Assembly (NCBI GenBank): GCA_964386355.1
Contig: CAYLQQ010000002.1
Coordinates: forward strand, 45,374-109,373
Direction: 5' to 3'
DNA from: an uncultured Pseudomonadales bacterium
Lineage (GTDB): Bacteria > Patescibacteriota > Microgenomatia > UBA1400 > UBA1449
Length of the DNA: 64,000 bases
Shown here piece by piece: positions 1,895 through 37,529 of the stretch. Numbering within the stretch: the first letter of the stretch is position 1; each line of letters begins with the position of its first letter. The notes beneath the pieces were generated by a model. That model searched no databases. It saw only the letters and a program-made list of their open reading frames with translations, and was not told the origin of the DNA. The position numbers and the translations under genes were made by a program.

Positions 1895-4150
1895 TCAATA
1901 CTCCGGAAGGATATTATAAACAATTGTTCCCTCGTATAGATCAGATGGCTGAAGATAATTTACCTCTATTGCATAGCTTACATAAACCGTTTTTTCTTCA
2001 GCTTCTTGTGAGGACATGACGCTGTGTGAGATGGTGCTTAAAGGACCAAATTTTGCTGATGCATTTGACCACCCCTCCACTCTTGTATCAGATGTATTTA
2101 CGCCCACCCAGCCCGTATTAACGTTCCGTACTATGCCATTTGGTGCTGACCATATTTGTGGGGTTTGCCATGTGACAGAAGTTGCGGCAAATTCATCAAT
2201 ATTATTATCGGGGTAGTTCCCCTGCATTTGATTATACAGTTTGACGCTAACATCATAGCCATAGTCTGTATTGCTGTTTACCGTCAGCTTGTGAGATCCG
2301 AACTTCGGTACGCCAACACTGAGATTACCGAATGGAAGGGTAGTGTGGGTTGTGTTTATATTTGTTGTAATTCCGTTGTTTGAAGTTCCTGTAGGTACAC
2401 CTTCGATAGCAAAAGATAAGCTAGGAGTAGCTCGATGGTATATATCAAATGTTTGTCCATCACTTTGTACTGCTGAAAATGATTGTAGAAGCAAGAGATC
2501 TGAATATATGGTTTGCTCAATGGGGTATGTTGTATAGTCGCCTGCGGTTTTATTGATTCGGATGTAGTACAGAGGATGTCCACCATTTACGGTTGATTTA
2601 GTCCATTCATTCGGAACAGTATAGTACACATTTCCAGCACTTGTAAATGTGCTAGCTCCTGAGTTGCTATTAGATATTGCAAGGGTAGACCAGGTATCAC
2701 AAGGAGTATTGATATCCAAGTTTGAGCCGCAGTAAGACCAAACGGTTATAATACCAGAACCTGCACCTTTGGTTTGTAGTTGGGTATTTACACCGCTAAA
2801 CTGCGTGTGATTACCCAGGTAAAGGTAATCATTAGAATTGTCAAAAATCTGGTAGCTGCCCTGATCAAAACTGGCATTATCTTGACTATCAGCCAAGTAC
2901 TCATTTGTATCAGATGCCAAGCCACCTCTTGCCAGCTGTTTCCAGGTGTTTGAGCTGTCATAAAACCAAGCTTGTGAAAATGGTATTAAATTGGCATTAT
3001 AATCTGTATTGATCGTACGGTTTGTGCCTTCGATAGAGAAATTGGTTGGTACATTGCTTGTGCGCCAGTTTCTAAATTTGAATATAGGGGCATATCTTGA
3101 GTACGTTTCCCCATCCAAATTAAAAGAAATTATATTGTTTGAAGTTATTAGCGGGTAACTGTTTTGGGTTTGGTTAAAGTAGTCGCTTTCTCCTGTATTG
3201 GTAAACTCACTAGCAGAACTCCAGGCTGAACCTACAGATATTTTGCCAAATAAGCTGTCTGGTTGCCATAAATCTACAGCATAGCTTTTTGCTTCATTAC
3301 CGCTTAAGCTATTATCGTCAGTAATCTGAAAAACATAAGTATACGTATATGACTGTCCTCCAGAAAGACTATCATCAGTAATCAAACCGGCTGTAATTAC
3401 ATTTTCATCATTCTGGTATAAAAATTCATTATTTGGGAAAAAGCTGGGTACTTCTAGGGCATGTATCATGTAATCATTATCAGTACCGGTAGCTGGGTCA
3501 GAACCGGTGAGTGTTAGGCTAATCCCAGGAGCTGTGTATGTAATGTCAGCCACGCTCTGAATAGCTGCGCTTGGTGTGACGGTACCAGGAGCTGTATCAT
3601 GATCAGAAATAAAAGCATTTTCATCAAATAAGCTTGGTGCAAACGAAATGTAAGGTCCAGTCATTCCAGTACCAGCTGTGGATGAGCTAAAGGCACCATG
3701 CACCACAATCCTATCGGGATATATGGTATAGATTTGGGTATATTCTCCATCATTACTAGAACCGCAAGCTCCGTCTGTAAAATCATAGAGATCCCCGCTT
3801 ACTGAGATGACAATTCTTGTTTGAGTAGATTCCAAAAGGTGTATTGAAGCATTACTTTCACAAAACATGCTGTTTGTATCTCGTGTGACTAAACCCATTC
3901 CATATAACCGATTTGAAGTGCTACTAGTATCGATAATATTAGTGCTGCTTGAGCTGGGAATAACTAAGCTCGATAGTACTCCCCCGAGATCGCTCCTAAA
4001 CGTTGCTTTCCAGCTCGGGGTGGAATTACTGTTAACAACAATTGTGGTTGCAGTTATAGAGTCTACGCTCACTGATGCGGCATATACTTGTTGAGTGCAG
4101 GTCAGAAAGGTGAACGATATGAGAAATAGAAAGATACATGTTAATCGCAT
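1895..4150 (-). CDS. Large secreted surface protein with a C-terminal domain paralogous to the neighbouring 369-aa protein (WxL-like, tentative)
   Basis: Sec signal peptide (MRLTCIFLFLISFTFLTCTQQVYA/AS) and a Ser/Thr/Asn-rich beta-type composition. The last ~185 aa align with the C-terminus of the 4229..5338 product (TLPFGNLSVGVPKFGSHKLTVNSNTDYGYDVSVK...NTGWVGVNTSD...YVSYAIEVNYLQPSDLYEGTIVYNILPEY). Confidence 0.7.
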   Translation of the reverse strand: MRLTCIFLFLISFTFLTCTQQVYAASVSVDSITATTIVVNSNSTPSWKATFRSDLGGVLSSLVIPSSSSTNIIDTSSTSNRLYGMGLVTRDTNSMFCESNASIHLLESTQTRIVISVSGDLYDFTDGACGSSNDGEYTQIYTIYPDRIVVHGAFSSSTAGTGMTGPYISFAPSLFDENAFISDHDTAPGTVTPSAAIQSVADITYTAPGISLTLTGSDPATGTDNDYMIHALEVPSFFPNNEFLYQNDENVITAGLITDDSLSGGQSYTYTYVFQITDDNSLSGNEAKSYAVDLWQPDSLFGKISVGSAWSSASEFTNTGESDYFNQTQNSYPLITSNNIISFNLDGETYSRYAPIFKFRNWRTSNVPTNFSIEGTNRTINTDYNANLIPFSQAWFYDSSNTWKQLARGGLASDTNEYLADSQDNASFDQGSYQIFDNSNDYLYLGNHTQFSGVNTQLQTKGAGSGIITVWSYCGSNLDINTPCDTWSTLAISNSNSGASTFTSAGNVYYTVPNEWTKSTVNGGHPLYYIRINKTAGDYTTYPIEQTIYSDLLLLQSFSAVQSDGQTFDIYHRATPSLSFAIEGVPTGTSNNGITTNINTTHTTLPFGNLSVGVPKFGSHKLTVNSNTDYGYDVSVKLYNQMQGNYPDNNIDEFAATSVTWQTPQIWSAPNGIVRNVNTGWVGVNTSDTRVEGWSNASAKFGPLSTISHSVMSSQEAEEKTVYVSYAIEVNYLQPSDLYEGTIVYNILPEY

Positions 4151-5482: not shown

Positions 5483-7180
5483 ATGATAGAAGATATTAAA
5501 ATTGTATCAGGATCAAGTATCATTTATACTCAGAGCATGGTACTTTCTGACGATGCATTACTAGAACAGTCACTCCAGGATATTGGGATTAAATCTTACA
5601 AGGATCCCTTTGGTATGCCTGACACGTTTATATATGATCCCATAAAACCCATACAAGAAAAAGAAGGCAGCAAACGGCAAGTCCGCTTTACCCAACTGCT
5701 GAACTATTCGTTTCCAGAAGAGATAGAAGGTGGAGTAGCCGAGGTAGGGGAGGTGATATATATCGGCGATGGGGTGTGCCGGGTGGTCGGCTTATCGAAA
5801 GCTGAAATCGAAGATGTAATCAATGTTAAAACAGGTAAGGGTTGGGAAAAGGCACTCATCTTAGGTATAGAAGATACCCATATTGAGTCAGTTGTTCTTG
5901 GAGATTATTCAAATATCAAACAGGGCGACCAGGTAATCGCAACTAACTCAAGGTTAAAAGTGCCTGTTGGTAAAACTCTGTATGGCCGGGTAATTAGTCC
6001 TCTCGGAGTGCCTATAGATGGTAAGGGCAAGATTGAACCCGAAACGTACCGGGATGTGGAATTTCCAGCCCCATCAGTTATGGAGCGTGAGCCCATTTTT
6101 GAACCCCTAAAAACAGGTGAGATGGTTATAGATGCTACGATCCCTATCGGTTTAGGCCAGAGAGAATTGGTGATAGGAGACCGAAAAAGCGGGAAGAGCA
6201 GGTTTGCTATCGACATCATTTCAAACCAAAAAGGCAGAAACATGATCTGTGTATATGTTGGAGTTGGAATGCAGGCTGCTAAGGCAAAGGCTACGCTTGA
6301 GCTTTTGGAATCTAGAGAGGCCATGGATTACACCATCATGGTTGTATCTACTTCTGATGATCCTCCGTCACTACAGTACATCTCTCCATATGTAGGTACT
6401 GCCATAGCGGAGCATTTTATGTATGCAGGCAAAAATGTCTTGATTATTTATGATGATCTATCAAAACAAGCAAAAGCTTATCGGCAGGTTTCATTGCTGT
6501 TGAAACGCTCGCCAGGTCGAGATGCATATCCTGGTGATATCTTCTTTTTACATTCCAGGCTACTTGAACGCTCATCAAAAATGCATCGCAAGCTGGGAGG
6601 AGGTGCCATTACTGCCCTACCCATTGCCGAAACCCAGTCCGGTGATATATCTGATTACATCATCACCAATCTCATGTCTATTACAGATGGGCACATTTAT
6701 CTGGATGCAAATATGATGCATGAGGGAATTTTACCGGCAGTAAACTCACAAGCCTCAGTTTCCCGTATCGGGAGTAAGGTCCAGTCAAGTTTGCTAAAAA
6801 AGGTAGGAGAGCTTGCTTCGAGAGCTCTAGCCCGGTATGCAGAGTTAAAATCATTTGAAACGATTAACACCGAAGTTGCAGAGGAAACACTTCGGGATAT
6901 ACGGAGAGGCAAAAAAGTAAAGGAAATGTTAGCTCAAGTATCATCAGTAAATTATTCTACAGATGAGATAGTAGTTTTGCTCCATTTAGTAACTTCAGAT
7001 AAGCTGGAGATGATCGATCTTACAGACCTGTCTAAGTTTAAGCTGGAATTCCTGGAATACTATAGAAAAATTGTGACTCCTGAATTTAGAGGTAAATGTG
7101 AATCGTCAAAAGACCTCAAAGATATCGATGGGGAAGTGTCTGTTATGCTGGATAGGTTTTTAAAGCAACGTACAAGTTAG
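5483..7180 (+). CDS. atpA: F-type ATPase F1 alpha subunit with an N-terminal extension
   Basis: P-loop GDRKSGKS, followed by ...LIIYDDLSKQAKAYRQVSLLLKRSPGRDAYPGDIFFLHSRLLERS...ALPIAETQSGDISDYIITNLMSITDGHIYLD, all classic alpha-subunit blocks. The beta-barrel motif GEVIYIGDGVCRVVGL starts near residue 89, against about 30 in canonical alpha. An alternative start at M45 is possible. Confidence 0.93.
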   Translation: MIEDIKIVSGSSIIYTQSMVLSDDALLEQSLQDIGIKSYKDPFGMPDTFIYDPIKPIQEKEGSKRQVRFTQLLNYSFPEEIEGGVAEVGEVIYIGDGVCRVVGLSKAEIEDVINVKTGKGWEKALILGIEDTHIESVVLGDYSNIKQGDQVIATNSRLKVPVGKTLYGRVISPLGVPIDGKGKIEPETYRDVEFPAPSVMEREPIFEPLKTGEMVIDATIPIGLGQRELVIGDRKSGKSRFAIDIISNQKGRNMICVYVGVGMQAAKAKATLELLESREAMDYTIMVVSTSDDPPSLQYISPYVGTAIAEHFMYAGKNVLIIYDDLSKQAKAYRQVSLLLKRSPGRDAYPGDIFFLHSRLLERSSKMHRKLGGGAITALPIAETQSGDISDYIITNLMSITDGHIYLDANMMHEGILPAVNSQASVSRIGSKVQSSLLKKVGELASRALARYAELKSFETINTEVAEETLRDIRRGKKVKEMLAQVSSVNYSTDEIVVLLHLVTSDKLEMIDLTDLSKFKLEFLEYYRKIVTPEFRGKCESSKDLKDIDGEVSVMLDRFLKQRTS

Positions 7181-8164: not shown

Positions 8165-11973
<3,809 letters not shown>

Positions 11974-19929: not shown

Positions 19930-21810
19930 TTAATTATTTTTTACAAATAATCCAAGTATAGGCTTTTCTGTACTTTTAAAATCCTCGCTTTTCATCTGCA
20001 CTGACTGCGTGTTTGATCCGGCATTGAAGTTGATCCAGGCTTGCTCAAGTAAGCCTTCATCAACATAGGTCGGAATATTAAATAAACTTCCAAATGGCGG
20101 GACGGAACCGGGTCGTAAGCCCGTGACCTTTAGTAACGTATCCTTATCTACTAGAGCAACATCTTTAAATCCAGTTGCTTGCTTAAATGCTTTTAGGTCA
20201 AGTTTAGATGCAGCTGAGACAACAACCATGATGGGTTTGCCATCAGCCATACAAACCAAGGCTTTAGCACCGGATTCTATGGAAGTTCCTCTAGCTTGTG
20301 CGGCCTCTTCGCTGGTAAACACAGGTTTATGCTCGAATTTCTTGTACTCAACTTTTTCATTATCTAAGTAATTGCAGATCTGCTCAAAGATCGATTTAGA
20401 AGTAGTCTGTTTCATAGAGCGGATCTGAATACCCAGCTCTTTCATCTGTTCTTCTGAGATGGGGCTGGGGGCATCCATCACTGCCGTTCTACCTGTTGAG
20501 GTCATCGGGAAGGCAATTGCCTCTTTAAGAGAGCTTTGGTTACTTAATAGCATGACAAACCTGTCTAAACCCAATGCTAGACCACCATGTGGCGGAGTTC
20601 CAAGACGAAACGCTTCAAGCATATGACCAACTGATGCTTCAATTTCTTCTTTAGAATATCCCATTATCTCAAACGTTTTATAAAGAGCGTTTGGGTTATG
20701 TGCCCGGATAGATCCTCCACCCATTTCGTATCCATTACAAACAAGGTCATATTGTGTTGTGAGAATATTCTCAATATTTTTCCCTTCCAGATGATCGGCA
20801 ATAAACTCATCTTTAGGCTGAGAAAACGGGTTGTGAGTGAATGTCCAGCCGCTTTTACCGTCACGCACCTCGGCCACGTCTTCTTTATTTACTTTCTTGA
20901 AAAATGGAAAGTCTACTACCCAAGCAAAAGCTAATACTCCATCCTTCTTTTCCTGTTCCGTTCGGATATCAAACCTGTCTGCACCATAGGTTTTAATAGC
21001 TTCATCATAAGTAATTATGGGAAATTTCCCTTCTCTTAGTTTACCTCCTACAGCCAAGATTGCTGCTTTGGTAGCCTGTTCAACCATTTCCATTACGTCC
21101 TCTCGTTTGACAAAGGACATCTCCAAATCAAGCTGGGTAAACTCAAATCCCCGGTCAGCCCGCAGATCCTCATCGCGGATGCAACGGGCAATCTGGAAAT
21201 AGCGTTCAAAGCCGGCTGTCATCAAAAGCTGTTTGTACTGCTGGGGTGATTGGGGCAAGGCATAGAACTTGCCTGGTTGGAAACGGGAAGGAACCACAAA
21301 ATCTCGGGCGCCTTCTTTGGTTGATTTGGTCAGCATGGGTGTCTCGATCTCGACAAAATCATTGGCAAATAAAGACTTGCGGAACTCTTCGATGAGCTTA
21401 CTTCGAAGCCTGATTGCTTTTTGCAGACGCTCACGTCGAAGGTCCAGGTATCTGTATTTTAACTTGAGCTCTTCATCAAGTTGAGTGCCATCAGTATCTA
21501 TGGGGAAGGGTAGTTCTTTGCATTCATTTAACAGGCTAAATGATGATGCTTGAATTTCGATTGCGCCGGTAGGAAGGTCTTTATTTACCATTTGCTCGGG
21601 ACGGTTATTAACTATACCGACTACTTCAACCACATCTTCCTGACTGAGTTTTCCCATTTTTGAGTCGCCCACTACCTGCACCTTGCCCGATCTATCGCGA
21701 AGCTCGATGAAAACTAATTTGCCGTGATCGCGGACCGTATCAACCCAACCTTGTAGCAAGATCTCCTCACCAATCTTTTTAAATGTTTCAAGTGCGAGTG
21801 TGCGTTTCAT
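19930..21810 (-). CDS. aspS: Aspartyl-tRNA synthetase (bacterial-type core without the GAD insertion) fused to a C-terminal YbaK/ProX-like aminoacyl-tRNA deacylase domain
   Basis: OB-fold N-terminus (LQGWVDTVRDHGKLVFIELRDRSG), FYALPQSPQQYKQLLM, motif 2 YFQIARCIRDEDLRADRGFEFTQLDLEMSF, motif 3 GGLALGLDRFVMLL. The last ~155 aa (...KFEHKPVFTSEEAAQARGTSIESGAKALVCMADGKPIMVVVSAASKLDLKAF...LRPGSVPPFG...) fit the YbaK-family pattern. Confidence 0.9.
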   Translation of the reverse strand: MKRTLALETFKKIGEEILLQGWVDTVRDHGKLVFIELRDRSGKVQVVGDSKMGKLSQEDVVEVVGIVNNRPEQMVNKDLPTGAIEIQASSFSLLNECKELPFPIDTDGTQLDEELKLKYRYLDLRRERLQKAIRLRSKLIEEFRKSLFANDFVEIETPMLTKSTKEGARDFVVPSRFQPGKFYALPQSPQQYKQLLMTAGFERYFQIARCIRDEDLRADRGFEFTQLDLEMSFVKREDVMEMVEQATKAAILAVGGKLREGKFPIITYDEAIKTYGADRFDIRTEQEKKDGVLAFAWVVDFPFFKKVNKEDVAEVRDGKSGWTFTHNPFSQPKDEFIADHLEGKNIENILTTQYDLVCNGYEMGGGSIRAHNPNALYKTFEIMGYSKEEIEASVGHMLEAFRLGTPPHGGLALGLDRFVMLLSNQSSLKEAIAFPMTSTGRTAVMDAPSPISEEQMKELGIQIRSMKQTTSKSIFEQICNYLDNEKVEYKKFEHKPVFTSEEAAQARGTSIESGAKALVCMADGKPIMVVVSAASKLDLKAFKQATGFKDVALVDKDTLLKVTGLRPGSVPPFGSLFNIPTYVDEGLLEQAWINFNAGSNTQSVQMKSEDFKSTEKPILGLFVKNN

Positions 21811-28778: not shown

Positions 28779-30809
<2,031 letters not shown>

Positions 30810-30885: not shown

Positions 30886-31404
30886 ATGTTTGATACTTTA
30901 TTTATATACACCCTAACAGTAATTATTTACATTGGCATTCTTTTCTTTTTCTTTTGGAGGCGTAATAGAAAACAAGAAGAACAGCTTAATGCTTTTTTGA
31001 AAGAAGCTAAAGAAAAACTTGAATTGCATAGAAAAGAGGCAAAAGTTCAAGCCTCAGGTAAAGTTGCCAAAGCATTTGAGCTGATCAAACGTTTACAAGG
31101 TGTTGCTGAGGATTTGGAGGGTCAAGTACAGACAGAGTATGAAAAAGTACTGGAAGAAGCCCAGCAGCAGAAAAAAGATATCATCGCTGAAGCACGCAGA
31201 CAATCTAAAGAAATACTTGAAGGAGCTGATGGAGAGCTCGCTCAGTATAAAGAAGAACGTAAGCGGGAAATTGAGAAAAACCTAGTGAAATTAGTAATGA
31301 GTGTCACTGAAAAGGTAGTCGGTAGGGGATTAACGCGTGAAGACCAAGTTGATCTGATCAGGGAAGCTGTTGAGGAAGTCAGGAAAGAAAAGGGACATTT
31401 ATAA
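30886..31404 (+). CDS. atpF: F-type ATPase subunit b (peripheral stalk)
   Basis: A single N-terminal TM (LTVIIYIGILFFFFW) followed by a ~140-aa charged coiled coil (…EEAQQQKKDIIAEARRQSKEILEGA…). It sits directly upstream of atpH. Confidence 0.8.
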   Translation: MFDTLFIYTLTVIIYIGILFFFFWRRNRKQEEQLNAFLKEAKEKLELHRKEAKVQASGKVAKAFELIKRLQGVAEDLEGQVQTEYEKVLEEAQQQKKDIIAEARRQSKEILEGADGELAQYKEERKREIEKNLVKLVMSVTEKVVGRGLTREDQVDLIREAVEEVRKEKGHL

Positions 31405-31431: not shown

Positions 31432-32010
31432 ATGGAAAAAGGTGTTGATAAATTAGCAAAACAACTGCTCTCTCAAATCTATACCACATCAGAACTTAAA
31501 AAAACTTCTCTGGCGTTAGAAGAACTATCACACTCTTCAACTTTTAAGGCAGAAACGCGCGCTATAGTAGCTAATCCTAAATTAGCTGATGAAGCTAAAG
31601 CAACACAATTACTAAAACTGTTTGATGAAATAGATATTCCTATAATCCAATCGTTTTTTTCAGGGGTTTTTAGTGAAGGAGAGTTCTGGATGTTTTCCTC
31701 CAAACAATTCGATTACTTCGACGAATTTGTAAGAGCTTTTCAGCTGGCTACTGAGAATGTACTAGTGGTATCGATGGTTACTGCTATTGAGCTTTATCCG
31801 CGTGAGCAGATGGTTTTTGCGCAAGAACTAGGGAAAAGCCTCGAAAGACAAGTTGTTTTGGACTTTAAACTTAATTCTGGAATTATCGGCGGAGCTCAGA
31901 TTCGAATCGGAAACCTAGTATTTGACTATACGTTGCGCTCTAAGTTTAATCAGTTTGAAAGGCAATGGATAAGTCGCATGGCAAAAACAGCTGCTTTTGT
32001 GGGGGAGTAA
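31432..32010 (+). CDS. atpH: F-type ATPase subunit delta (OSCP)
   Basis: Size is 192 aa. The C-terminal block VVLDFKLNSGIIGGAQIRIGNLVFDYTLRSKFNQF matches the delta/OSCP signature (..D.sliGG..v.vGd.v.D.S...rL). Confidence 0.8.
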   Translation: MEKGVDKLAKQLLSQIYTTSELKKTSLALEELSHSSTFKAETRAIVANPKLADEAKATQLLKLFDEIDIPIIQSFFSGVFSEGEFWMFSSKQFDYFDEFVRAFQLATENVLVVSMVTAIELYPREQMVFAQELGKSLERQVVLDFKLNSGIIGGAQIRIGNLVFDYTLRSKFNQFERQWISRMAKTAAFVGE

Positions 32011-32012
32011 AG

Positions 32013-32085
32013 TGATCCCACGGGGAATCGAACCCCGGTTTACGGGATGAGAACCCGCTGTCCTAGGCCACTAGACGATGGGACC
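32013..32085 (-). tRNA. tRNA-Glu (anticodon CUC), no encoded CCA
   Basis: The minus strand reads GGUCCCAUCGUCUAGUGGCCUAGGACAGCGGGUUCUCAUCCCGUAAACCGGGGUUCGAUUCCCCGUGGGAUCA. The 7-bp acceptor stem pairs (one G-U), the T-loop is GGUUCGAUUCC, and the anticodon loop is UU-CUC-AU. Confidence 0.9.
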
Positions 32086-32424: not shown

Positions 32425-32904
32425 ATGGCAGATTTGAGCGCAAACAGCGTCTACCTGACCAAGGACGGTTTAACAAACCTTGAAAAAGAACTTGAAGAGC
32501 TAAAAAAGGTTAAATTACCAAAACTAGTTAAACGCGTTGCGATAGCACGTGATAATGGTGATTTATCAGAAAATGCTGAGTATAGTTCTGCCCGTGAAGA
32601 ATTGTCATTTGTTGAAGGCAGAGTAGATGAACTTGAAGATATTCTAGCTCATGCGAAAGTGATAAAACAATCAAATGGGAGTGGTAAAAAGCAAGTCTCC
32701 TTGGGCAGCCAGATAACTGTTAAAGTTAATAATGGTGAGCATGTTTTTACTATTGTGGGTGAGTGGGAAGCGGATCCTATGGAAAAGAAAATCAGCCATG
32801 ATTCACCACTTGGAAAAGCGCTTTTAGGTAAAAAAGAAGGCGAAGAAGTTGAGGTAGAAGCTCCGGCGGGCAGGGTTGTATATAAAATCGTAAAAATTCA
32901 TTAA
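32425..32904 (+). CDS. greA: Transcription elongation factor GreA
   Basis: LTKDGLTNLEKELEELK...ARDNGDLSENAEYSSAREELSFVEGRVDELEDIL coiled-coil with the acidic tip (DLSENAEY). The C-terminal globular domain has the ISxxSPLGKALLGKKEGE motif. Confidence 0.93.
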   Translation: MADLSANSVYLTKDGLTNLEKELEELKKVKLPKLVKRVAIARDNGDLSENAEYSSAREELSFVEGRVDELEDILAHAKVIKQSNGSGKKQVSLGSQITVKVNNGEHVFTIVGEWEADPMEKKISHDSPLGKALLGKKEGEEVEVEAPAGRVVYKIVKIH

Positions 32905-32995: not shown

Positions 32996-35290
32996 ATGTA
33001 TTGGGCAGATAAAATCGCAGATCAGATTGTAAAAAGTGGACAGCATAAACCATACTGGGTTGATGATATGAAAACCCCCTCTGGAAGGATTCATGTTGGG
33101 TCTTTACGGGGTGTGTTGATACATGATTTTGTCCACAAAGCTCTTATGCATCAAGGAAAATCCTCGACTTTTACGTATGTGTACAACGACATGGATCCAA
33201 TGGATGCATTACCGGGGTACTTAGATAAAGATGTTTATACTCAACATATGGGTAAGCCTCTGTATAAAATACCTGCACCTGAAGGTAACAAAAGTTTTGC
33301 TCAGTATTATGCCGATGAGTTTACTGGGGTTTTTAATCGCCTTGGGGCAACTCCCAAGATAGTGTTGTCGCATGAGCTGTATGAATCCGGCCAGATGAAT
33401 CCTCTTATACAGATAGCTTTAGATAATGTTGAAGAGTTAAAACACATTTATCGCGACATTGCTCATTACGAATTAGAAAAGAACTGGTATCCATTTCAGG
33501 TATTCTGTGAGCACTGCGGAAAAGAGGGTTCTACTACAACCTATCATTGGGATGGTGAGTATGTATATTACCGATGTGAAAAAAGTAAAGTAGAATGGGC
33601 TGTTGGCTGTGGTCATGAGGGCAAGGTTTCACCCTTTAACGGTACCGGTAAATTTCTTTGGAAAGTTGACTGGCCAGCTCACTGGAAGTTGATTGGTATT
33701 ACTATTGAAGGTGCTGGAAAGGATCATACTTCAGCCGGAGGTTCCCGTGATATGGCTCGGGAAATTGTGAAGCGTGTTTTCAAATACCCTGAGCCGTATG
33801 ACATCCCTTATGAGTGGTTGCTTATCCGTGGTGCCAAAATGTCTTCATCTAAAGGTATTGGAGCCTCTGCTAAAGAGTTTGCTGATCTTTTACCTCCGGA
33901 AGTGGGTAGGTTCTTGTTTGCCCGTACCCATTGCAATACAGTAATCGATTTTGATTTAGTTGGTAATACCATCCCTGATCTATTTGATGAATATGACAAA
34001 TGTGCACAGGCATATTTTAGTGGTAAACAAGATATGTATGCCCGGATTTATGAAGCTTCACAAGTGACTGATAAAAAATCAGATCCCGTATTTTTACCAA
34101 GATTTAGAGATGTAGCAATGTATAGCCAAATGCCCAGCGTTGATCTGATTGCAAAATTTGAACAGGTAAAAGGTTCTATCTTATCACCTGCAGAAAGGCA
34201 TATCCTGGAAGAGAGGGTAAATTACGCAAAGAAGTGGATTAAAAACTATGCTCCGTCTAATTTGAACTTTCAACTCTCAGATAACTCAACTCAATCTGTA
34301 ACACTTAATCAAAAACAGAAAGATTATTTAGGCTCTGTAATAGCGTTATTACAGAAAACATGGAATAAACCGGAAGATTTTCAATTTGAGCTGTTTGAAG
34401 AAACAAAACGACTTGGAATTTCAGCCAAGGAAGCTTTTGCTGCCATTTATCAGATACTGTTAGGTAAGAATTTTGGTCCTAAAGCAGCATGGTTTCTGTT
34501 GGAACAGGATAAAGAAGAGTTAATTAAGCGATTTAGCGAGGTGATAGGAGAAACTAATAAAAGTGATGTATCCATTTCCCAAACTTTTCCAACAATTACT
34601 GACTCAAAGATGATACAAATCAGTACAGCCATTGCACATCAATACCCTTCAGTGCATATCGGGTTTGCCATTATCAGAGGCATACAAGTGGTCAAAACCA
34701 ATGAACAGCTAGAACAAGAAAAAGAAACCCTATATGCAAAACTAAAAAGCATGACGACAGAAGAGATTGGCACTATGCCAGAGATCTTAAGTTATAGAAA
34801 AATGTACAAACAAATGGGGGTAGATTGGCATTCCAGAAGGCCTAGTCCAGAAGCTTTACTACGCCGTATCGTACAAGGCAAGGATTTGTATGCTGTAAAT
34901 ACTTGCGTTGATGCGTACAACCTGATTGTGATGAAATATAGAGTAAGTGTCGGGACATTTGACCTAAAAAATTTGGATTTTCCGGTAGAACTGTGTGTTG
35001 CGAAGGGTGGAGAAAAGATATTGCTTTTGGGCAATGATGAAGAAACCGAAATAAAAGCAGGTGAAGTGTATTATCAAGATCAAACTGGACCATACAATCT
35101 AGATTATAACTACAGAGACTCTCAGCGGGTGAGTGTGAATGAAGACACTGAAGACATTATGATCAACGTTGATGGCGTGTATGATGTTGGTAGACCACAT
35201 GTAGAAAGAGCACTGAAAGAGACTTTAGAGATTATCAAAAAGTACTGCGGTGGAGTGATAGAAGTCGCTGGTATTATTGAAGCGAAATAA
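32996..35290 (+). CDS. lysK: Class I lysyl-tRNA synthetase fused to a C-terminal B3/B4 (PheRS-beta-like, COG3382-type) domain
   Basis: Class I core: PSGRIHVGSLRGVLIHD (HIGH-type), GKDH, KMSSSKG (KMSKS). The C-terminal ~228 aa (34604..35287) read ...ILSYRKMYKQMGVDWHSRRPSPEALLRRIVQGKDLYAVNTCVDAYNLIVMKYRVSVGTFDLKNL...YNYRDSQRVSVNEDTEDIMINVDGV, the B3/B4-domain family pattern. Confidence 0.85.
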   Translation: MYWADKIADQIVKSGQHKPYWVDDMKTPSGRIHVGSLRGVLIHDFVHKALMHQGKSSTFTYVYNDMDPMDALPGYLDKDVYTQHMGKPLYKIPAPEGNKSFAQYYADEFTGVFNRLGATPKIVLSHELYESGQMNPLIQIALDNVEELKHIYRDIAHYELEKNWYPFQVFCEHCGKEGSTTTYHWDGEYVYYRCEKSKVEWAVGCGHEGKVSPFNGTGKFLWKVDWPAHWKLIGITIEGAGKDHTSAGGSRDMAREIVKRVFKYPEPYDIPYEWLLIRGAKMSSSKGIGASAKEFADLLPPEVGRFLFARTHCNTVIDFDLVGNTIPDLFDEYDKCAQAYFSGKQDMYARIYEASQVTDKKSDPVFLPRFRDVAMYSQMPSVDLIAKFEQVKGSILSPAERHILEERVNYAKKWIKNYAPSNLNFQLSDNSTQSVTLNQKQKDYLGSVIALLQKTWNKPEDFQFELFEETKRLGISAKEAFAAIYQILLGKNFGPKAAWFLLEQDKEELIKRFSEVIGETNKSDVSISQTFPTITDSKMIQISTAIAHQYPSVHIGFAIIRGIQVVKTNEQLEQEKETLYAKLKSMTTEEIGTMPEILSYRKMYKQMGVDWHSRRPSPEALLRRIVQGKDLYAVNTCVDAYNLIVMKYRVSVGTFDLKNLDFPVELCVAKGGEKILLLGNDEETEIKAGEVYYQDQTGPYNLDYNYRDSQRVSVNEDTEDIMINVDGVYDVGRPHVERALKETLEIIKKYCGGVIEVAGIIEAK

Positions 35291-36169
35291 TTACTTCTTT
35301 TTAGCCATCCTATCCCACAGCACCAAGAGCGGGGCGGCGGTGAAGGTTGAGGAATACGTCCCGGAAACAGTTCCTACCAGCAAGGCAAAGACAAACCACT
35401 TGGTCGTTTCTCCTCCCAATAGGTATAAGGCCAAAAGCATAAAAATAATTGTCATGGAATTATTGATAGACCTGGTTAGTGTTTCATTGACGGCTTTATT
35501 GATCAGCATATCAGAAGGAATGCCTGACATCTTGCGTTTTGACTCACGGATGCGGTCATAGACGACGATAGTATCATGGACTGAGAAGCTTAAAATAGTT
35601 AGTAAGGCTGTCATAAACAGGGTGTCCACTTCCACATCCATAAAATATCCCAGCAGAGAAAAGACACCTAAAACCACAAGTGTATCGTGTAGCATAGCGA
35701 GGACTGCACAAATGCCATACTTTTTATCTTTAAATTGCTTCCAGATAAACAGAAGGATGACCCCTGCAGCTATCAATAGGGCTGTAAGAGCTCGCCTAAG
35801 CGTTTCTGCACCAAATGTTGGTCCCAGTGTTTCGAACCGTTTCTCCGTAATGGTAGTGCCGGCTGCTGAAGCTACTTTTTGTTGCAACAGGGAATTTGTT
35901 GCCTGGTCAAATGTTTTGGAACGGATGGTAAAAGTAGAATCTTCCTGTCTGACAGAACTGGCTTCAATTCCCTCCTGCACCAATAATTGTGATAGCTCTT
36001 CCTGGTTATATTGGTTGGGATTTTCGTTGAGTTGGAACTCAAGCAAGGTACCACCAGTAAAATCAATGGAGAGTTTGAGGCCATGAACAATGAGAGAATA
36101 TAGTCCTGGAATGATCACCAGACCGGAGATAACAAAGTAGAGCCAGTAGTATTTCATGAATTTGATCAT
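35291..36169 (-). CDS. secF: Protein translocase subunit SecF
   Basis: IDFTGGTLLEF motif and a six-TM layout. It lies immediately downstream of secD. Confidence 0.9.
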   Translation of the reverse strand: MIKFMKYYWLYFVISGLVIIPGLYSLIVHGLKLSIDFTGGTLLEFQLNENPNQYNQEELSQLLVQEGIEASSVRQEDSTFTIRSKTFDQATNSLLQQKVASAAGTTITEKRFETLGPTFGAETLRRALTALLIAAGVILLFIWKQFKDKKYGICAVLAMLHDTLVVLGVFSLLGYFMDVEVDTLFMTALLTILSFSVHDTIVVYDRIRESKRKMSGIPSDMLINKAVNETLTRSINNSMTIIFMLLALYLLGGETTKWFVFALLVGTVSGTYSSTFTAAPLLVLWDRMAKKK

Positions 36170-36170
36170 A

Positions 36171-37529
36171 TTATTCTTTTCCTCGGTATAAAACTCTTAT
36201 TAGAGTGCGTGAAACAACAATTCCTGTAAACATGCTTACAGCTACCCCTACAAGTAATGTCAAAGCAAAACCTCTGACCATGCCGGAGGTTACCAGCCAG
36301 TTGAAATTTAGAGGGTTTAGCAGAATAATTGCAGTTAAGATTGTGGCTAAGTTGGCATCTTTGATGCTATCCCAGGCGCGACCAAATCCGAGTTCCATAG
36401 CCCGTTTCCATGGCTGACCGGTTCTCATTTCTTCTTTCATGCGTTCGAAAATAAGAATATTAGCATCCACGGCCATTCCTACAGAAAGTATAAAACCGGC
36501 TATTCCAGGCAAAGATAAAGTAATTGGTACTAGTTTATAAATTGATAATGTGATTAAGCTATAAATAATAAGTGCAATATTTGCAATAATTCCCAGTCGA
36601 CCATACAAACCTATCATAAACAGCATGACAATCGCCAGGCCAATTAGTCCGGCAATCACGCTTTTTTGGACTGAATCGGCACCGAGGCTAGGACCGACAG
36701 TACGCTGTTCAATGATTTGTATAGGGACGGGGAGAGCACCTGCATTGAGCTGAATGGCTAGTTCTTTTGCTGAATCGGTAGTAAAACTACCTGAAATGAT
36801 TGCTTCACCAGATGTAATTTCGTCTTGGACAGTGGGTGCAGTGACCGGCATTTCATCCAGAAAGATGGCTACCTGTCTTTGTAGGTTTCGTTTAGTAATT
36901 TCGGCAAACTTGGTTGCCCCTTCGCTTGTAAACTGGATGGCAACTACCGGCTCACCGGAAATACTATTACTACCAAATTGTACAGAAGCGCGTTTGAGGT
37001 CTTTTCCTGTCAAGCCTGTGCTGACAAAGTTTAAAATGGATAAGGCAGAAGGTGAGGCATCTTGGAGTTCGGCAGGCAGCTCACGGAAATCGAGCTGGGC
37101 AGTTTTCCCGATGAGTGAAATGGCATCTTCAACGTTTTGAATACCAGGCATTTCTACGATAATCCGGTACTGGTCATTCATTCTAGAAGTAATAATATTA
37201 GGTTCGGTGACACCATACAAGTCAACGCGCCTACTGATCACTTCCCTGGTCGATTCAAGGGCTGTTGTTCGGTCTTCATTGGGAATAATACTCATATCCG
37301 CTTGCAGAACAAGCTGTACACCCCCCTGCAAATCAAGACCTTGCTGAATATTAAGGTCTCGACTGAACGTTTTATTGCCGATATTAATATTAATTATTGG
37401 GGAACCAATCTTTGTATCTATTTGTTTACCAAAAATAGTAAATTTTACTGGGATGTTTTTTGGGAGAGATATTACCAGTGTAATAAGGGTAAGGAAAATA
37501 ATGAAAATGAATAGCCGAATCGGTTTCAT
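36171..37529 (-). CDS. secD: Protein translocase subunit SecD
   Basis: GLDLQGGVQLVLQ motif, a periplasmic domain, and a C-terminal RND-like TM bundle (…GIAGFILSVGMAVDANILIFERMKEE). Confidence 0.9.
   Translation of the reverse strand: MKPIRLFIFIIFLTLITLVISLPKNIPVKFTIFGKQIDTKIGSPIININIGNKTFSRDLNIQQGLDLQGGVQLVLQADMSIIPNEDRTTALESTREVISRRVDLYGVTEPNIITSRMNDQYRIIVEMPGIQNVEDAISLIGKTAQLDFRELPAELQDASPSALSILNFVSTGLTGKDLKRASVQFGSNSISGEPVVAIQFTSEGATKFAEITKRNLQRQVAIFLDEMPVTAPTVQDEITSGEAIISGSFTTDSAKELAIQLNAGALPVPIQIIEQRTVGPSLGADSVQKSVIAGLIGLAIVMLFMIGLYGRLGIIANIALIIYSLITLSIYKLVPITLSLPGIAGFILSVGMAVDANILIFERMKEEMRTGQPWKRAMELGFGRAWDSIKDANLATILTAIILLNPLNFNWLVTSGMVRGFALTLLVGVAVSMFTGIVVSRTLIRVLYRGKE

Follow-up and report, generated by a model that had tools for sequence, protein, structure and literature searches.

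We report here a fused gene in a 64,000-nucleotide stretch of DNA deposited under the name of an uncultured Pseudomonadales bacterium (assembly GCA_964386355.1, contig CAYLQQ010000002.1, positions 45,374 to 109,373; hereafter the window). The gene encodes a class I lysyl-tRNA synthetase (LysRS) that carries at its C-terminus a B3/4 module resembling the deacylase CtdA. On the evidence of sequence comparison and structure prediction, we consider this module to be probably, if with considerable room for doubt, a tethered post-transfer editing domain that removes a non-cognate, lysine-like amino acid from tRNALys. The LysRS polypeptide itself contains a separate deacylase-family domain, and a link of this domain to tRNALys is supported by a pocket specific to the synthetase partner and by the recurrence of the module on both LysRS classes. 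That the module hydrolyses, that tRNALys is its substrate, that it works in cis and which amino acid it rejects are inferences on our part.

To our knowledge, LysRS and arginyl-tRNA synthetase (ArgRS) are the textbook cases of synthetases without a separate post-transfer editing domain. Open-access papers and bioRxiv yielded no description of such a domain on ArgRS or on LysRS of either class, in agreement with an earlier note on this DNA, made from the letters alone, which had stated that class I LysRS has no described editing domain; a description in a subscription journal is possible. The same sources yielded neither a synthetase-fused CtdA homolog nor a LysRS, ArgRS or candidate phyla radiation (CPR) fusion with B3/4. 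Class II LysRS is known to edit homocysteine, homoserine and ornithine before transfer, by cyclisation at the active site, and ProXp-ST1 and ProXp-ST2 clear Ser or Thr from tRNALys in trans (PMC7373986).

The open reading frame (ORF) of the fused gene starts with ATG and is translated without any internal stop. The HIGH-type motif of class I LysRS, PSGRIHVGSLRG, lies at residues 28-39 and KMSSSKG at residues 281-287, while the stretch opening with YRKMYKQMGVDWHSRRPSPEALLRR begins at residue 600 and YNYRDSQRVSVNEDTEDIMINVDG occupies residues 704-727. In Pfam, tRNA-synt_1f (PF01921) matched residues 2-357 with 299.3 bits against a cut-off of 27, and B3_4 (PF03483) matched residues 600-752 (34793..35251) with 75.6 bits (E 4.6e-21) over model positions 2-174 of 174, its gathering cut-off being 29.3 bits. 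The NCBIfam model lysS_arch (TIGR00467) aligned residues 1-515 with positions 1-513 of its 515, scoring 381.2 bits where 147.55 is the cut-off. The core belongs to class I LysRS both by this full-length equivalog match and by its HIGH-type and KMSKS-type motifs. All the motifs quoted in the earlier note are found in the translation. Its description of a complete LysRS core stands, although the end it had placed near residue 530 moves back to about residues 515-520, with the tether at residues 521-528. The extra piece it had delimited at 34604..35287 was essentially right, the B3_4 profile match it had anticipated is real, and no stop codon separates the two parts, either here or in relatives.

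Of 4477 significant homologs, the best 120 all contain both PF01921 and PF03483. These 120 proteins show 47-67% identity and are 695-1077 aa long, mostly 757-812 aa; their named sources are Woesebacteria, Roizmanbacteria, Gottesmanbacteria, Pacebacteria, Dojkabacteria, CPR3 and the 'Patescibacteria group', and the nearest named relatives of the LysRS are Woesebacteria. The sole annotation on them is 'lysine--tRNA ligase'. Automatic Pfam hits make the fusion architecture apparent to anyone using public databases, yet it is labelled as a plain lysine--tRNA ligase. Many of the species-representative contigs with this Patescibacteria-type fusion bear titles such as 'uncultured Gammaproteobacteria', 'uncultured Pseudomonadales', 'Vitreimonas sp.' or 'Candidatus Eisenbacteria', and such titles, in bulk submissions of metagenome-assembled genomes, are probably placeholders or mis-assigned.

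A scan of species-representative genomes found the module encoded in 179 genomes, from which 80 loci were retained. In all 80 the module and LysRS share one ORF, and split genes numbered zero. This bears on an artefactual origin, in which two adjacent genes would have been fused by mistake in sequencing or assembly or through a frameshift, or the module would be a decaying appended pseudodomain. What speaks for an artefact is the general caution due to any metagenome, nothing specific having been found. We dropped this reading, to which we give almost no credence, because the same 764-aa product is encoded in an independent Logan assembly (SRR11845627; contig in three samples) and the 80 loci are unsplit; the consistent fusion among the best homologs, a module conserved like the core and a predicted fold with high confidence (see below) argue against it as well.

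We examined the anatomy of the protein by alignment and by AlphaFold2 (AF2) modelling. In the core, H33, G35, K281, M282, S285, K286 and G287 are invariant across 51 homologs, as are Cys171, Cys174, Cys194 and Cys205, which likely form a metal site. Like a canonical class I LysRS (the archaeal type of TIGR00467, also found in some bacteria), the fused core scores well above the equivalog cut-off and retains intact both signature motifs, HIGH-type and KMSKS-type, along with the four conserved cysteines. The canonical enzyme, however, ends at about 515-530 residues, whereas the fused protein runs some 230 residues further into a deacylase-like module. In the full-length model, with a mean predicted local distance difference test score (pLDDT) of 92.7, residues 521-528 (34556..34579) are the sole disordered segment (pLDDT <50). 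The linker is also the least conserved stretch, with gaps and a column identity of 0.28-0.38, and the spacer from W499 to P551 measures 46-68 residues (median 50) in 118 homologs. The predicted template modelling score (pTM) is 0.67 for the full-length protein versus 0.92 for the module alone. The model describes the fused protein as two rigid bodies joined by a flexible tether, and the constrained length of the spacer and the lone disordered segment count for predicted tethering.

The folded module spans residues ~535-764, about 225 aa. Over module residues 601-660 the column identity reaches 0.78-0.86, compared with ~0.55-0.75 for most of the core, and 26 columns are invariant across 30 diverse modules. 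By alignment, the module is no less conserved than the catalytic core, evidently under strong purifying selection.

Two kinds of known protein could serve as its model, CtdA and, in the phenylalanyl-tRNA synthetase beta subunit (PheRS-beta), the B3/B4 domain. A single-sequence search of PDB sequences returned the CtdA structure 9f7e first (E 1.6e-5). With a 30-sequence profile, 9mkl and 9f7e were matched at E 2.4e-9 and 3.6e-9, respectively, whereas PheRS-beta reached ~6e-4 or weaker, which makes CtdA the best profile match among solved structures. An AF2 model of the module (residues 531-764, pLDDT 95.1) gave 9f7e and 9mkl as the top Foldseek hits, with TM scores of 0.80-0.83 over 233-234 alignment columns (9f7e_A: E 2.6e-15, TM 0.81/0.82, 234 columns). 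By comparison, PheRS-beta B3/B4 gave a TMq of only 0.55-0.62. Since CtdA beats PheRS-beta both by sequence profile and by fold, the module is, as far as alignment and model tell, a whole protein of the CtdA kind, complete with the helical insert specific to CtdA and the region N-terminal to the Pfam match, and not a domain of the PheRS-beta type. The label 'PheRS-editing-like' of the earlier note therefore stands at the superfamily level and gives way to CtdA below it. The note had also called free-standing B3/B4 proteins poorly characterised, which no longer holds: in 2023 CtdA proved to be a hydrolase of canavanyl-tRNAArg, acting in trans on tRNAArg (PMC10018355), and structures with mutational dissection followed in 2025 (PMC12449066, PMC12268091), 9f7e being from P. 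canavaninivorans and 9mkl from S. enterica. These three papers do not mention synthetase fusions.

How far the likeness to CtdA extends can be stated residue by residue. The CtdA-type fold with its helical insert covers the whole module, and the equivalents of N105 and G116 are present; E118, C166, Q173 (or Glu) and I189 are not. CtdA is free-standing and belongs to the ArgRS system, whereas the module is fused, in all 80 loci, to LysRS, with one clear free-standing equivalent (P0124); both are tied to the tRNA of a basic amino acid. Sequence identity between the two is only ~19%. At the superfamily level the module belongs to the family. Its pocket and its fused state set it apart from CtdA in the strict sense, and it is not a PheRS editing domain either (see below), so that we would class it as a new subfamily within the CtdA/B3-4 deacylase superfamily, one found in a new architectural context.

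PheRS-beta B3/B4 hydrolyses Tyr- and m-Tyr-tRNAPhe, and the module could be thought to act on similar substrates, perhaps compensating for a degenerate PheRS editing site. PF03483 and the fold class are common to both, as is the Asn by which the catalytic water is positioned, and the module weakly matches pheT_bact over a local stretch (TIGR00472; E 2.7e-6, 21.8-25.9 bits against a cut-off of 402.65). PheRS-beta B3/B4 is moreover a cis post-transfer editing domain inside a synthetase, and the module, with its predicted editing, likewise sits within one. Yet the PheRS domain lies well inside a beta subunit of many domains, between B1/B2 and B5, whereas the module is tethered at the C-terminus of LysRS, outside any beta subunit, and its partners are LysRS and ArgRS, never anything related to PheRS. 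The E. coli PheRS editing residues are listed as R244, N254, Y255, H265, F267, A312, G318 and E334, and inserts and topology are described as differing between CtdA and PheRS (PMC12449066). Three of these positions were mapped through the CtdA alignment: N254 corresponds to N642 and is kept, while H265 has become G653 and G318 has become D708. Among the mapped positions, only the Asn is retained. CtdA itself is unable to replace PheRS in m-Tyr editing (PMC12449066). We rejected PheRS-type specificity as the primary reading, given the better match to CtdA and the replacement of H265 and G318, and hold it to be very improbable.

We turned to the pocket of CtdA. In the S. enterica protein it is formed by N105, G116, E118, C166, Q173 and I189; N105A, G116H, G116W and Q173G inactivate the enzyme, C166 modulates specificity, and the C. 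perfringens CtdA has Glu at the Q173 position (PMC12449066). N105 is the sole CtdA residue in common with the PheRS editing site, where E. coli PheRS-beta N254 positions the catalytic water (PMC12449066). We mapped these residues onto the module with HMMER alignments to 9mkl and 9f7e (Table 1). Among LysRS1-fused modules, G653 occurs in 121/121, F655 in 120/121, N701 in 120/121 and D708 in 121/121. The full pocket signature N-G-F-N-D-N is present in 120 of the 121, and in all 80 species-representative loci. In ArgRS-fused modules, by comparison, the position of F655 is Glu in 108/120, that of N701 is Cys in 88/120 and that of D708 is Glu in 112/120, and the position of N724 holds L, F or V. 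Around these positions, D639, N642, G653, E690, D695, N705 and R711 form a scaffold common to the LysRS- and ArgRS-fused modules.

As aligned, then, the two residues for catalysis or pocket size are kept and the four that line the specificity pocket are all replaced, E118/C166/Q173/I189 of CtdA becoming F/N/D/N. Since four of the six CtdA pocket residues differ, canavanine specificity is not expected for the LysRS-fused module. Since the pocket is both invariant and unlike that of CtdA, its conservation argues for an active site selected for a substrate other than CtdA's. From residue chemistry, a lining of Asp708, Asn701 and Asn724 suggests a polar or cationic side chain. The residue mapping is cross-validated by the ArgRS-fused modules, which reproduce a CtdA-type pocket with CtdA's E, C and E/Q at the same columns; this is the one check available for it.

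We next asked which partners the module keeps. An exhaustive profile search of 1.84 billion cluster representatives returned 3180 relatives at E <=1e-3, 1649 at E <=1e-10 and 117 at E <=1e-30, and the best 150 were classified by architecture. The module is found at the C-terminus of class I LysRS, as in the window, and at the C-terminus of class II LysRS (P0121, with 386.7 bits the top score overall, P0131, P0132 and P0142; NF001756 at 497-585 bits for the latter three). N-terminal modules occur on class II LysRS (P0184; NF001756, 631 bits), on class I LysRS (P0254; TIGR00467, 540 bits) and on ArgRS (P0213 and others; TIGR00456, 481 bits). Many relatives of 220-240 aa are free-standing and score 116-210 bits, far closer than the ~40 bits of CtdA. 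Among the 80 species-representative loci, 71 are class I LysRS fusions and nine are class II (one of the nine labelled Woesebacteria). The latter, with the module C-terminal as in P0121, are L002, L004, L008, L009, L013, L015, L054, L075 and L078.

The two LysRS classes are structurally unrelated. Class II-fused modules nevertheless score 350-386 bits, have the same N-G-F-N-D-N pocket and interleave with the class I-fused ones, nearest neighbours being 68-69% identical. The mean module identity is 0.45 between the LysRS classes, 0.28 to ArgRS-fused and 0.30 to free-standing modules. This pattern of relationship implies that the module has swapped partners at least twice. As the same module and pocket sit on two structurally unrelated enzymes, the association indicated by these comparisons is with lysine and tRNALys and not with one enzyme scaffold.

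The ArgRS fusion forms a large family of its own (e.g. P0213). PF03483 and ArgRS domains are present together in 120/120 of its best hits, with named sources in Peregrinibacteria, Gracilibacteria and Patescibacteria. It places the same module superfamily on a synthetase of a basic amino acid in the same superphylum; the module is, however, N-terminal and ~28% identical to the LysRS type, and its presumed target is misacylated tRNAArg. Its pocket reads N-G-E-C-E-(L/F/I/V) in 82/120, where S. enterica CtdA has N-G-E-C-Q-I, and the ArgRS N-terminal module is possibly a cis editing domain for canavanyl- or Arg-analogue-tRNAArg. A pocket-partner test at the level of 50%-identity clusters, with 39 LysRS-fused and eight ArgRS-fused modules, found an aromatic residue at 655 with Asp708 in 34/39 of the former, and an acidic 655 with Glu/Gln708 in 8/8 of the latter (Fisher p 1.9e-6, not corrected for phylogeny). 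Taking these results together, we consider it an evenly balanced proposition that Patescibacteria have dedicated post-transfer editing domains for both basic-amino-acid synthetases, a Lys-type (N-G-F-N-D-N) on class I and class II LysRS and an Arg-type on ArgRS.

Some relatives depart from the one-module fusion. P0124 is a free-standing Lys-type module of 229 aa with the N-G-F-N-D-N pocket (locus L082, 4001..4690; GCA_964392185.1, CAYMOO010000032.1), whose neighbours are DsbD/thioredoxin, FAD-oxidoreductase and acetyltransferase genes, with no adjacent lysS. Its context is the only informative one, the free-standing relatives P0159 and P0174 lying on contigs <1.6 kb without neighbours. In P0008 (Roizmanbacteria, 1077 aa) the module is duplicated in tandem (residues 575-804 and 841-1071), and P0162, an ArgRS of 1124 aa, has two N-terminal copies. 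A free-standing copy and tandem duplications are typical of a self-contained catalytic unit and, at the level of sequence, establish the autonomy of the module. P0142 (HNT30143.1, 1072 aa) is more elaborate still: class II LysRS is joined there by a tRNA-binding domain resembling YtpR, by the module and, at the C-terminus, by an HDIG domain.

These architectures also bear on whether the module catalyses anything. It might instead have no catalytic part and serve as an accessory domain for the binding of tRNA or of the CCA end, raising the affinity for tRNALys or positioning it, with hydrolysis lost or unused. In PheRS it is the tRNA 3' end that the B3/B4 fold binds, and synthetases commonly carry appended tRNA-binding domains. 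The basic residues R615, R623, R624, K629 and R711 of the module are conserved, and class I LysRS needs tRNA for amino-acid activation (PMC7373986). The same module, however, sits on class II LysRS, whose activation needs no tRNA, and a stand-alone version exists. The invariant, partner-dependent positions are exactly those of the CtdA amino-acid pocket, including the essential Asn and Gly. The YtpR-like domain of P0142 can be read both ways, either as a precedent for tRNA binding in such fusions or as a sign that the module beside it is not a generic tRNA binder. On balance, we judge a purely tRNA-binding role unlikely.

Another explanation keeps the hydrolysis and changes the target. The module could be an active deacylase for something other than LysRS errors, such as tRNAArg charged with canavanine or another analogue, D-aminoacyl-tRNAs or a wrong tRNA bearing Lys, or it could hydrolyse Lys-tRNALys for regulation, fusion serving only to ensure co-expression. 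CtdA does work in trans on tRNAArg (PMC10018355), no confident docking of module to core is predicted (pTM 0.67), the free-standing P0124 is not beside lysS, and four LysRS-fused modules have an Arg/CtdA-type pocket. Hydrolysis of the cognate product, on the other hand, would be a futile cycle. The ArgRS-fused sisters have a different, CtdA-like pocket, which makes canavanine an unlikely target of the Lys-type, and independent fusion to two unrelated LysRS enzymes and, the ArgRS sisters apart, to no other synthetase among the best 150 argues for a link specific to lysine or tRNALys. We regard a target of this kind as quite unlikely.

If the module is indeed a tethered editing domain for LysRS, the fused enzyme may work as follows. 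Residues 1-515, a complete class I LysRS, would make Lys-tRNALys, with a CtdA-family deacylase of ~225 residues held on a short flexible linker. Now and then the synthetase site would charge tRNALys with a lysine-like non-cognate amino acid. The tethered module would then capture the misacylated CCA end, either on the same enzyme or after release, and the ester bond would be hydrolysed at a site centred on Asn642, the equivalent of CtdA N105 and PheRS-beta N254. Cognate Lys would be excluded by the pocket of G653, F655, N701, D708 and N724. The rejected amino acid is presumably to be sought among thialysine (aminoethylcysteine, AEC), 4-oxalysine, ornithine or diaminobutyrate, hydroxylysine, D-Lys and Arg analogues. 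Ornithine was downgraded as the obvious shared substrate, because a passage of PMC8001834, citing Levengood et al., reports that class I LysRS does not form Orn-tRNALys.

Several points weigh against this proposal. Class I LysRS is regarded as intrinsically selective and, according to that same passage, makes no Orn-tRNALys, which leaves it less than obvious why editing should be needed. Sensitivity to analogues is not the same in the two LysRS classes, yet their modules have an identical pocket, which constrains the substrate without identifying it. With a full-length pTM of just 0.67, no defined cis geometry between the active sites is predicted, and the pocket mapping was made by hidden Markov model alignment at only ~19% identity to CtdA. 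Finally, P0184, P0194, P0254 and P0262 are LysRS-fused yet have a pocket of the CtdA/ArgRS type (D/E-C-E-V/Y), and so depart from the simple pattern of a pocket matched to its partner; in three of these four the module is N-terminal.

Should the editing function hold, LysRS and ArgRS would here have their first cis editing domains, with new substrate specificities within the CtdA superfamily: a two-year-old family would grow from one substrate, canavanine, to partner-matched specificities. An unrecognised proofreading step would be present on thousands of LysRS sequences of both classes, with its own invariant pocket. It would also mean that these organisms, which scavenge amino acids, are under sustained pressure from compounds that canonical LysRS and ArgRS are unable to keep out, be they Lys and Arg antimetabolites or near-cognates, and would point to the amino-acid analogues that are ecologically relevant for ultra-small scavenging bacteria. 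The Lys-type N-G-F-N-D-N and Arg-type N-G-E-C-E-x pockets offer a natural experiment on the determinants of specificity, and the modules could supply new editing parts where translation is engineered to use lysine analogues.

The window holds a second synthetase with an appended module, as the earlier note had counted. It is a bacterial-type aspartyl-tRNA synthetase (AspRS) with a C-terminal tRNA_edit domain of the YbaK/EbsC type, a fusion retained in 120/120 best homologs from Beckwithbacteria, Woesebacteria, Dojkabacteria and Patescibacteria, with Beckwithbacteria as the nearest named relatives. Several NCBI records of these homologs say only 'amino acid--tRNA ligase-related protein'. Judged by the relatives nearest to the AspRS and the LysRS, the organism of the window is a Patescibacterium of the Microgenomates type. 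Because the AspRS-YbaK fusion is conserved and ArgRS fusions occur in sister lineages, the comparison supports a lineage-wide tendency of Patescibacteria to fuse trans-editing-type deacylases to synthetases, a trend that the earlier note had proposed. The same evolutionary logic is seen in prolyl-tRNA synthetase (ProRS) INS versus YbaK/ProXp, alanyl-tRNA synthetase (AlaRS) versus AlaX and threonyl-tRNA synthetase (ThrRS) versus ThrRS-ed, in each of which a deacylase family is both free-standing and fused to the synthetase that makes the errors it clears. The AspRS-YbaK fusion of the window fits this pattern. The ProRS, AlaRS and ThrRS pairs involve synthetases other than LysRS or ArgRS.

Table 1 Coordinates of the fused gene, its parts and pocket codons, and other features of the window
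Feature	Coordinates	Strand	Basis or remark
Whole fused gene, class I LysRS + CtdA-like B3/4 module	32996..35290	+	764 aa + stop codon, single ORF
Class I LysRS core, residues 1-515: Rossmann catalytic domain, then helical anticodon-binding region	32996..34540	+	TIGR00467, PF01921
Interdomain linker, residues ~516-535	34541..34600	+	
CtdA-like B3/4 module, residues ~536-764	34601..35287	+	Profile match of 379 bits, residues 536-766 as counted in the stop-to-stop ORF
N642 codon, aligned with CtdA N105 / E. coli PheRS-beta N254	34919..34921	+	121/121 LysRS1-fused, 117/120 ArgRS-fused modules
G653-T654-F655: G653 aligned with CtdA G116 (pocket size), F655 replaces E118	34952..34960	+	
N701...D708, motif NLDYNYRD: N701 replaces C166, D708 replaces Q173 and E. 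coli PheRS-beta G318	35096..35119	+	
N724 codon, replaces CtdA I189 on the pocket wall	35165..35167	+	120/121 LysRS1-fused modules
Bacterial-type AspRS + C-terminal YbaK/EbsC-type tRNA_edit domain	19930..21810	-	NF001750 591 bits, PF04073 97 bits
GreA-like gene	32425..32904		Flank of the fused gene
secF + secD	35291..37529	-	Convergent with the fused gene
tRNA-Glu(CTC)	32012..32085	-	

Within the 64-kb window we found no further copy of the module, no class II LysRS (LysRS2), no ArgRS and no second LysRS; genes for PheRS-beta, a DTD or tRNALys are likewise absent from it. The genes flanking the fusion (GreA-like, secF/secD and tRNA-Glu) have no bearing on its function.

Elsewhere in the window, the 653-aa ORF at 28848..30809(+) combines a Big_1 bacterial Ig-like domain (residues 160-230) with a match to ATP-synthase subunit c at its extreme C-terminus (residues 588-643). 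Either this is a c subunit extended at its N-terminus by a very long stretch, or the ORF is mis-joined. It is followed by 30886..31404 and 31432..32010, which to judge from their sequence resemble ATP-synthase subunits b and delta. The ORFs at 1895..4150(-), 751 aa, and 8165..10555(+), 796 aa, matched no Pfam family at E <=1e-3; the latter lies between genes resembling those for ATP-synthase alpha (5483..7180; its 565 aa are unusually many) and beta (10558..11973).

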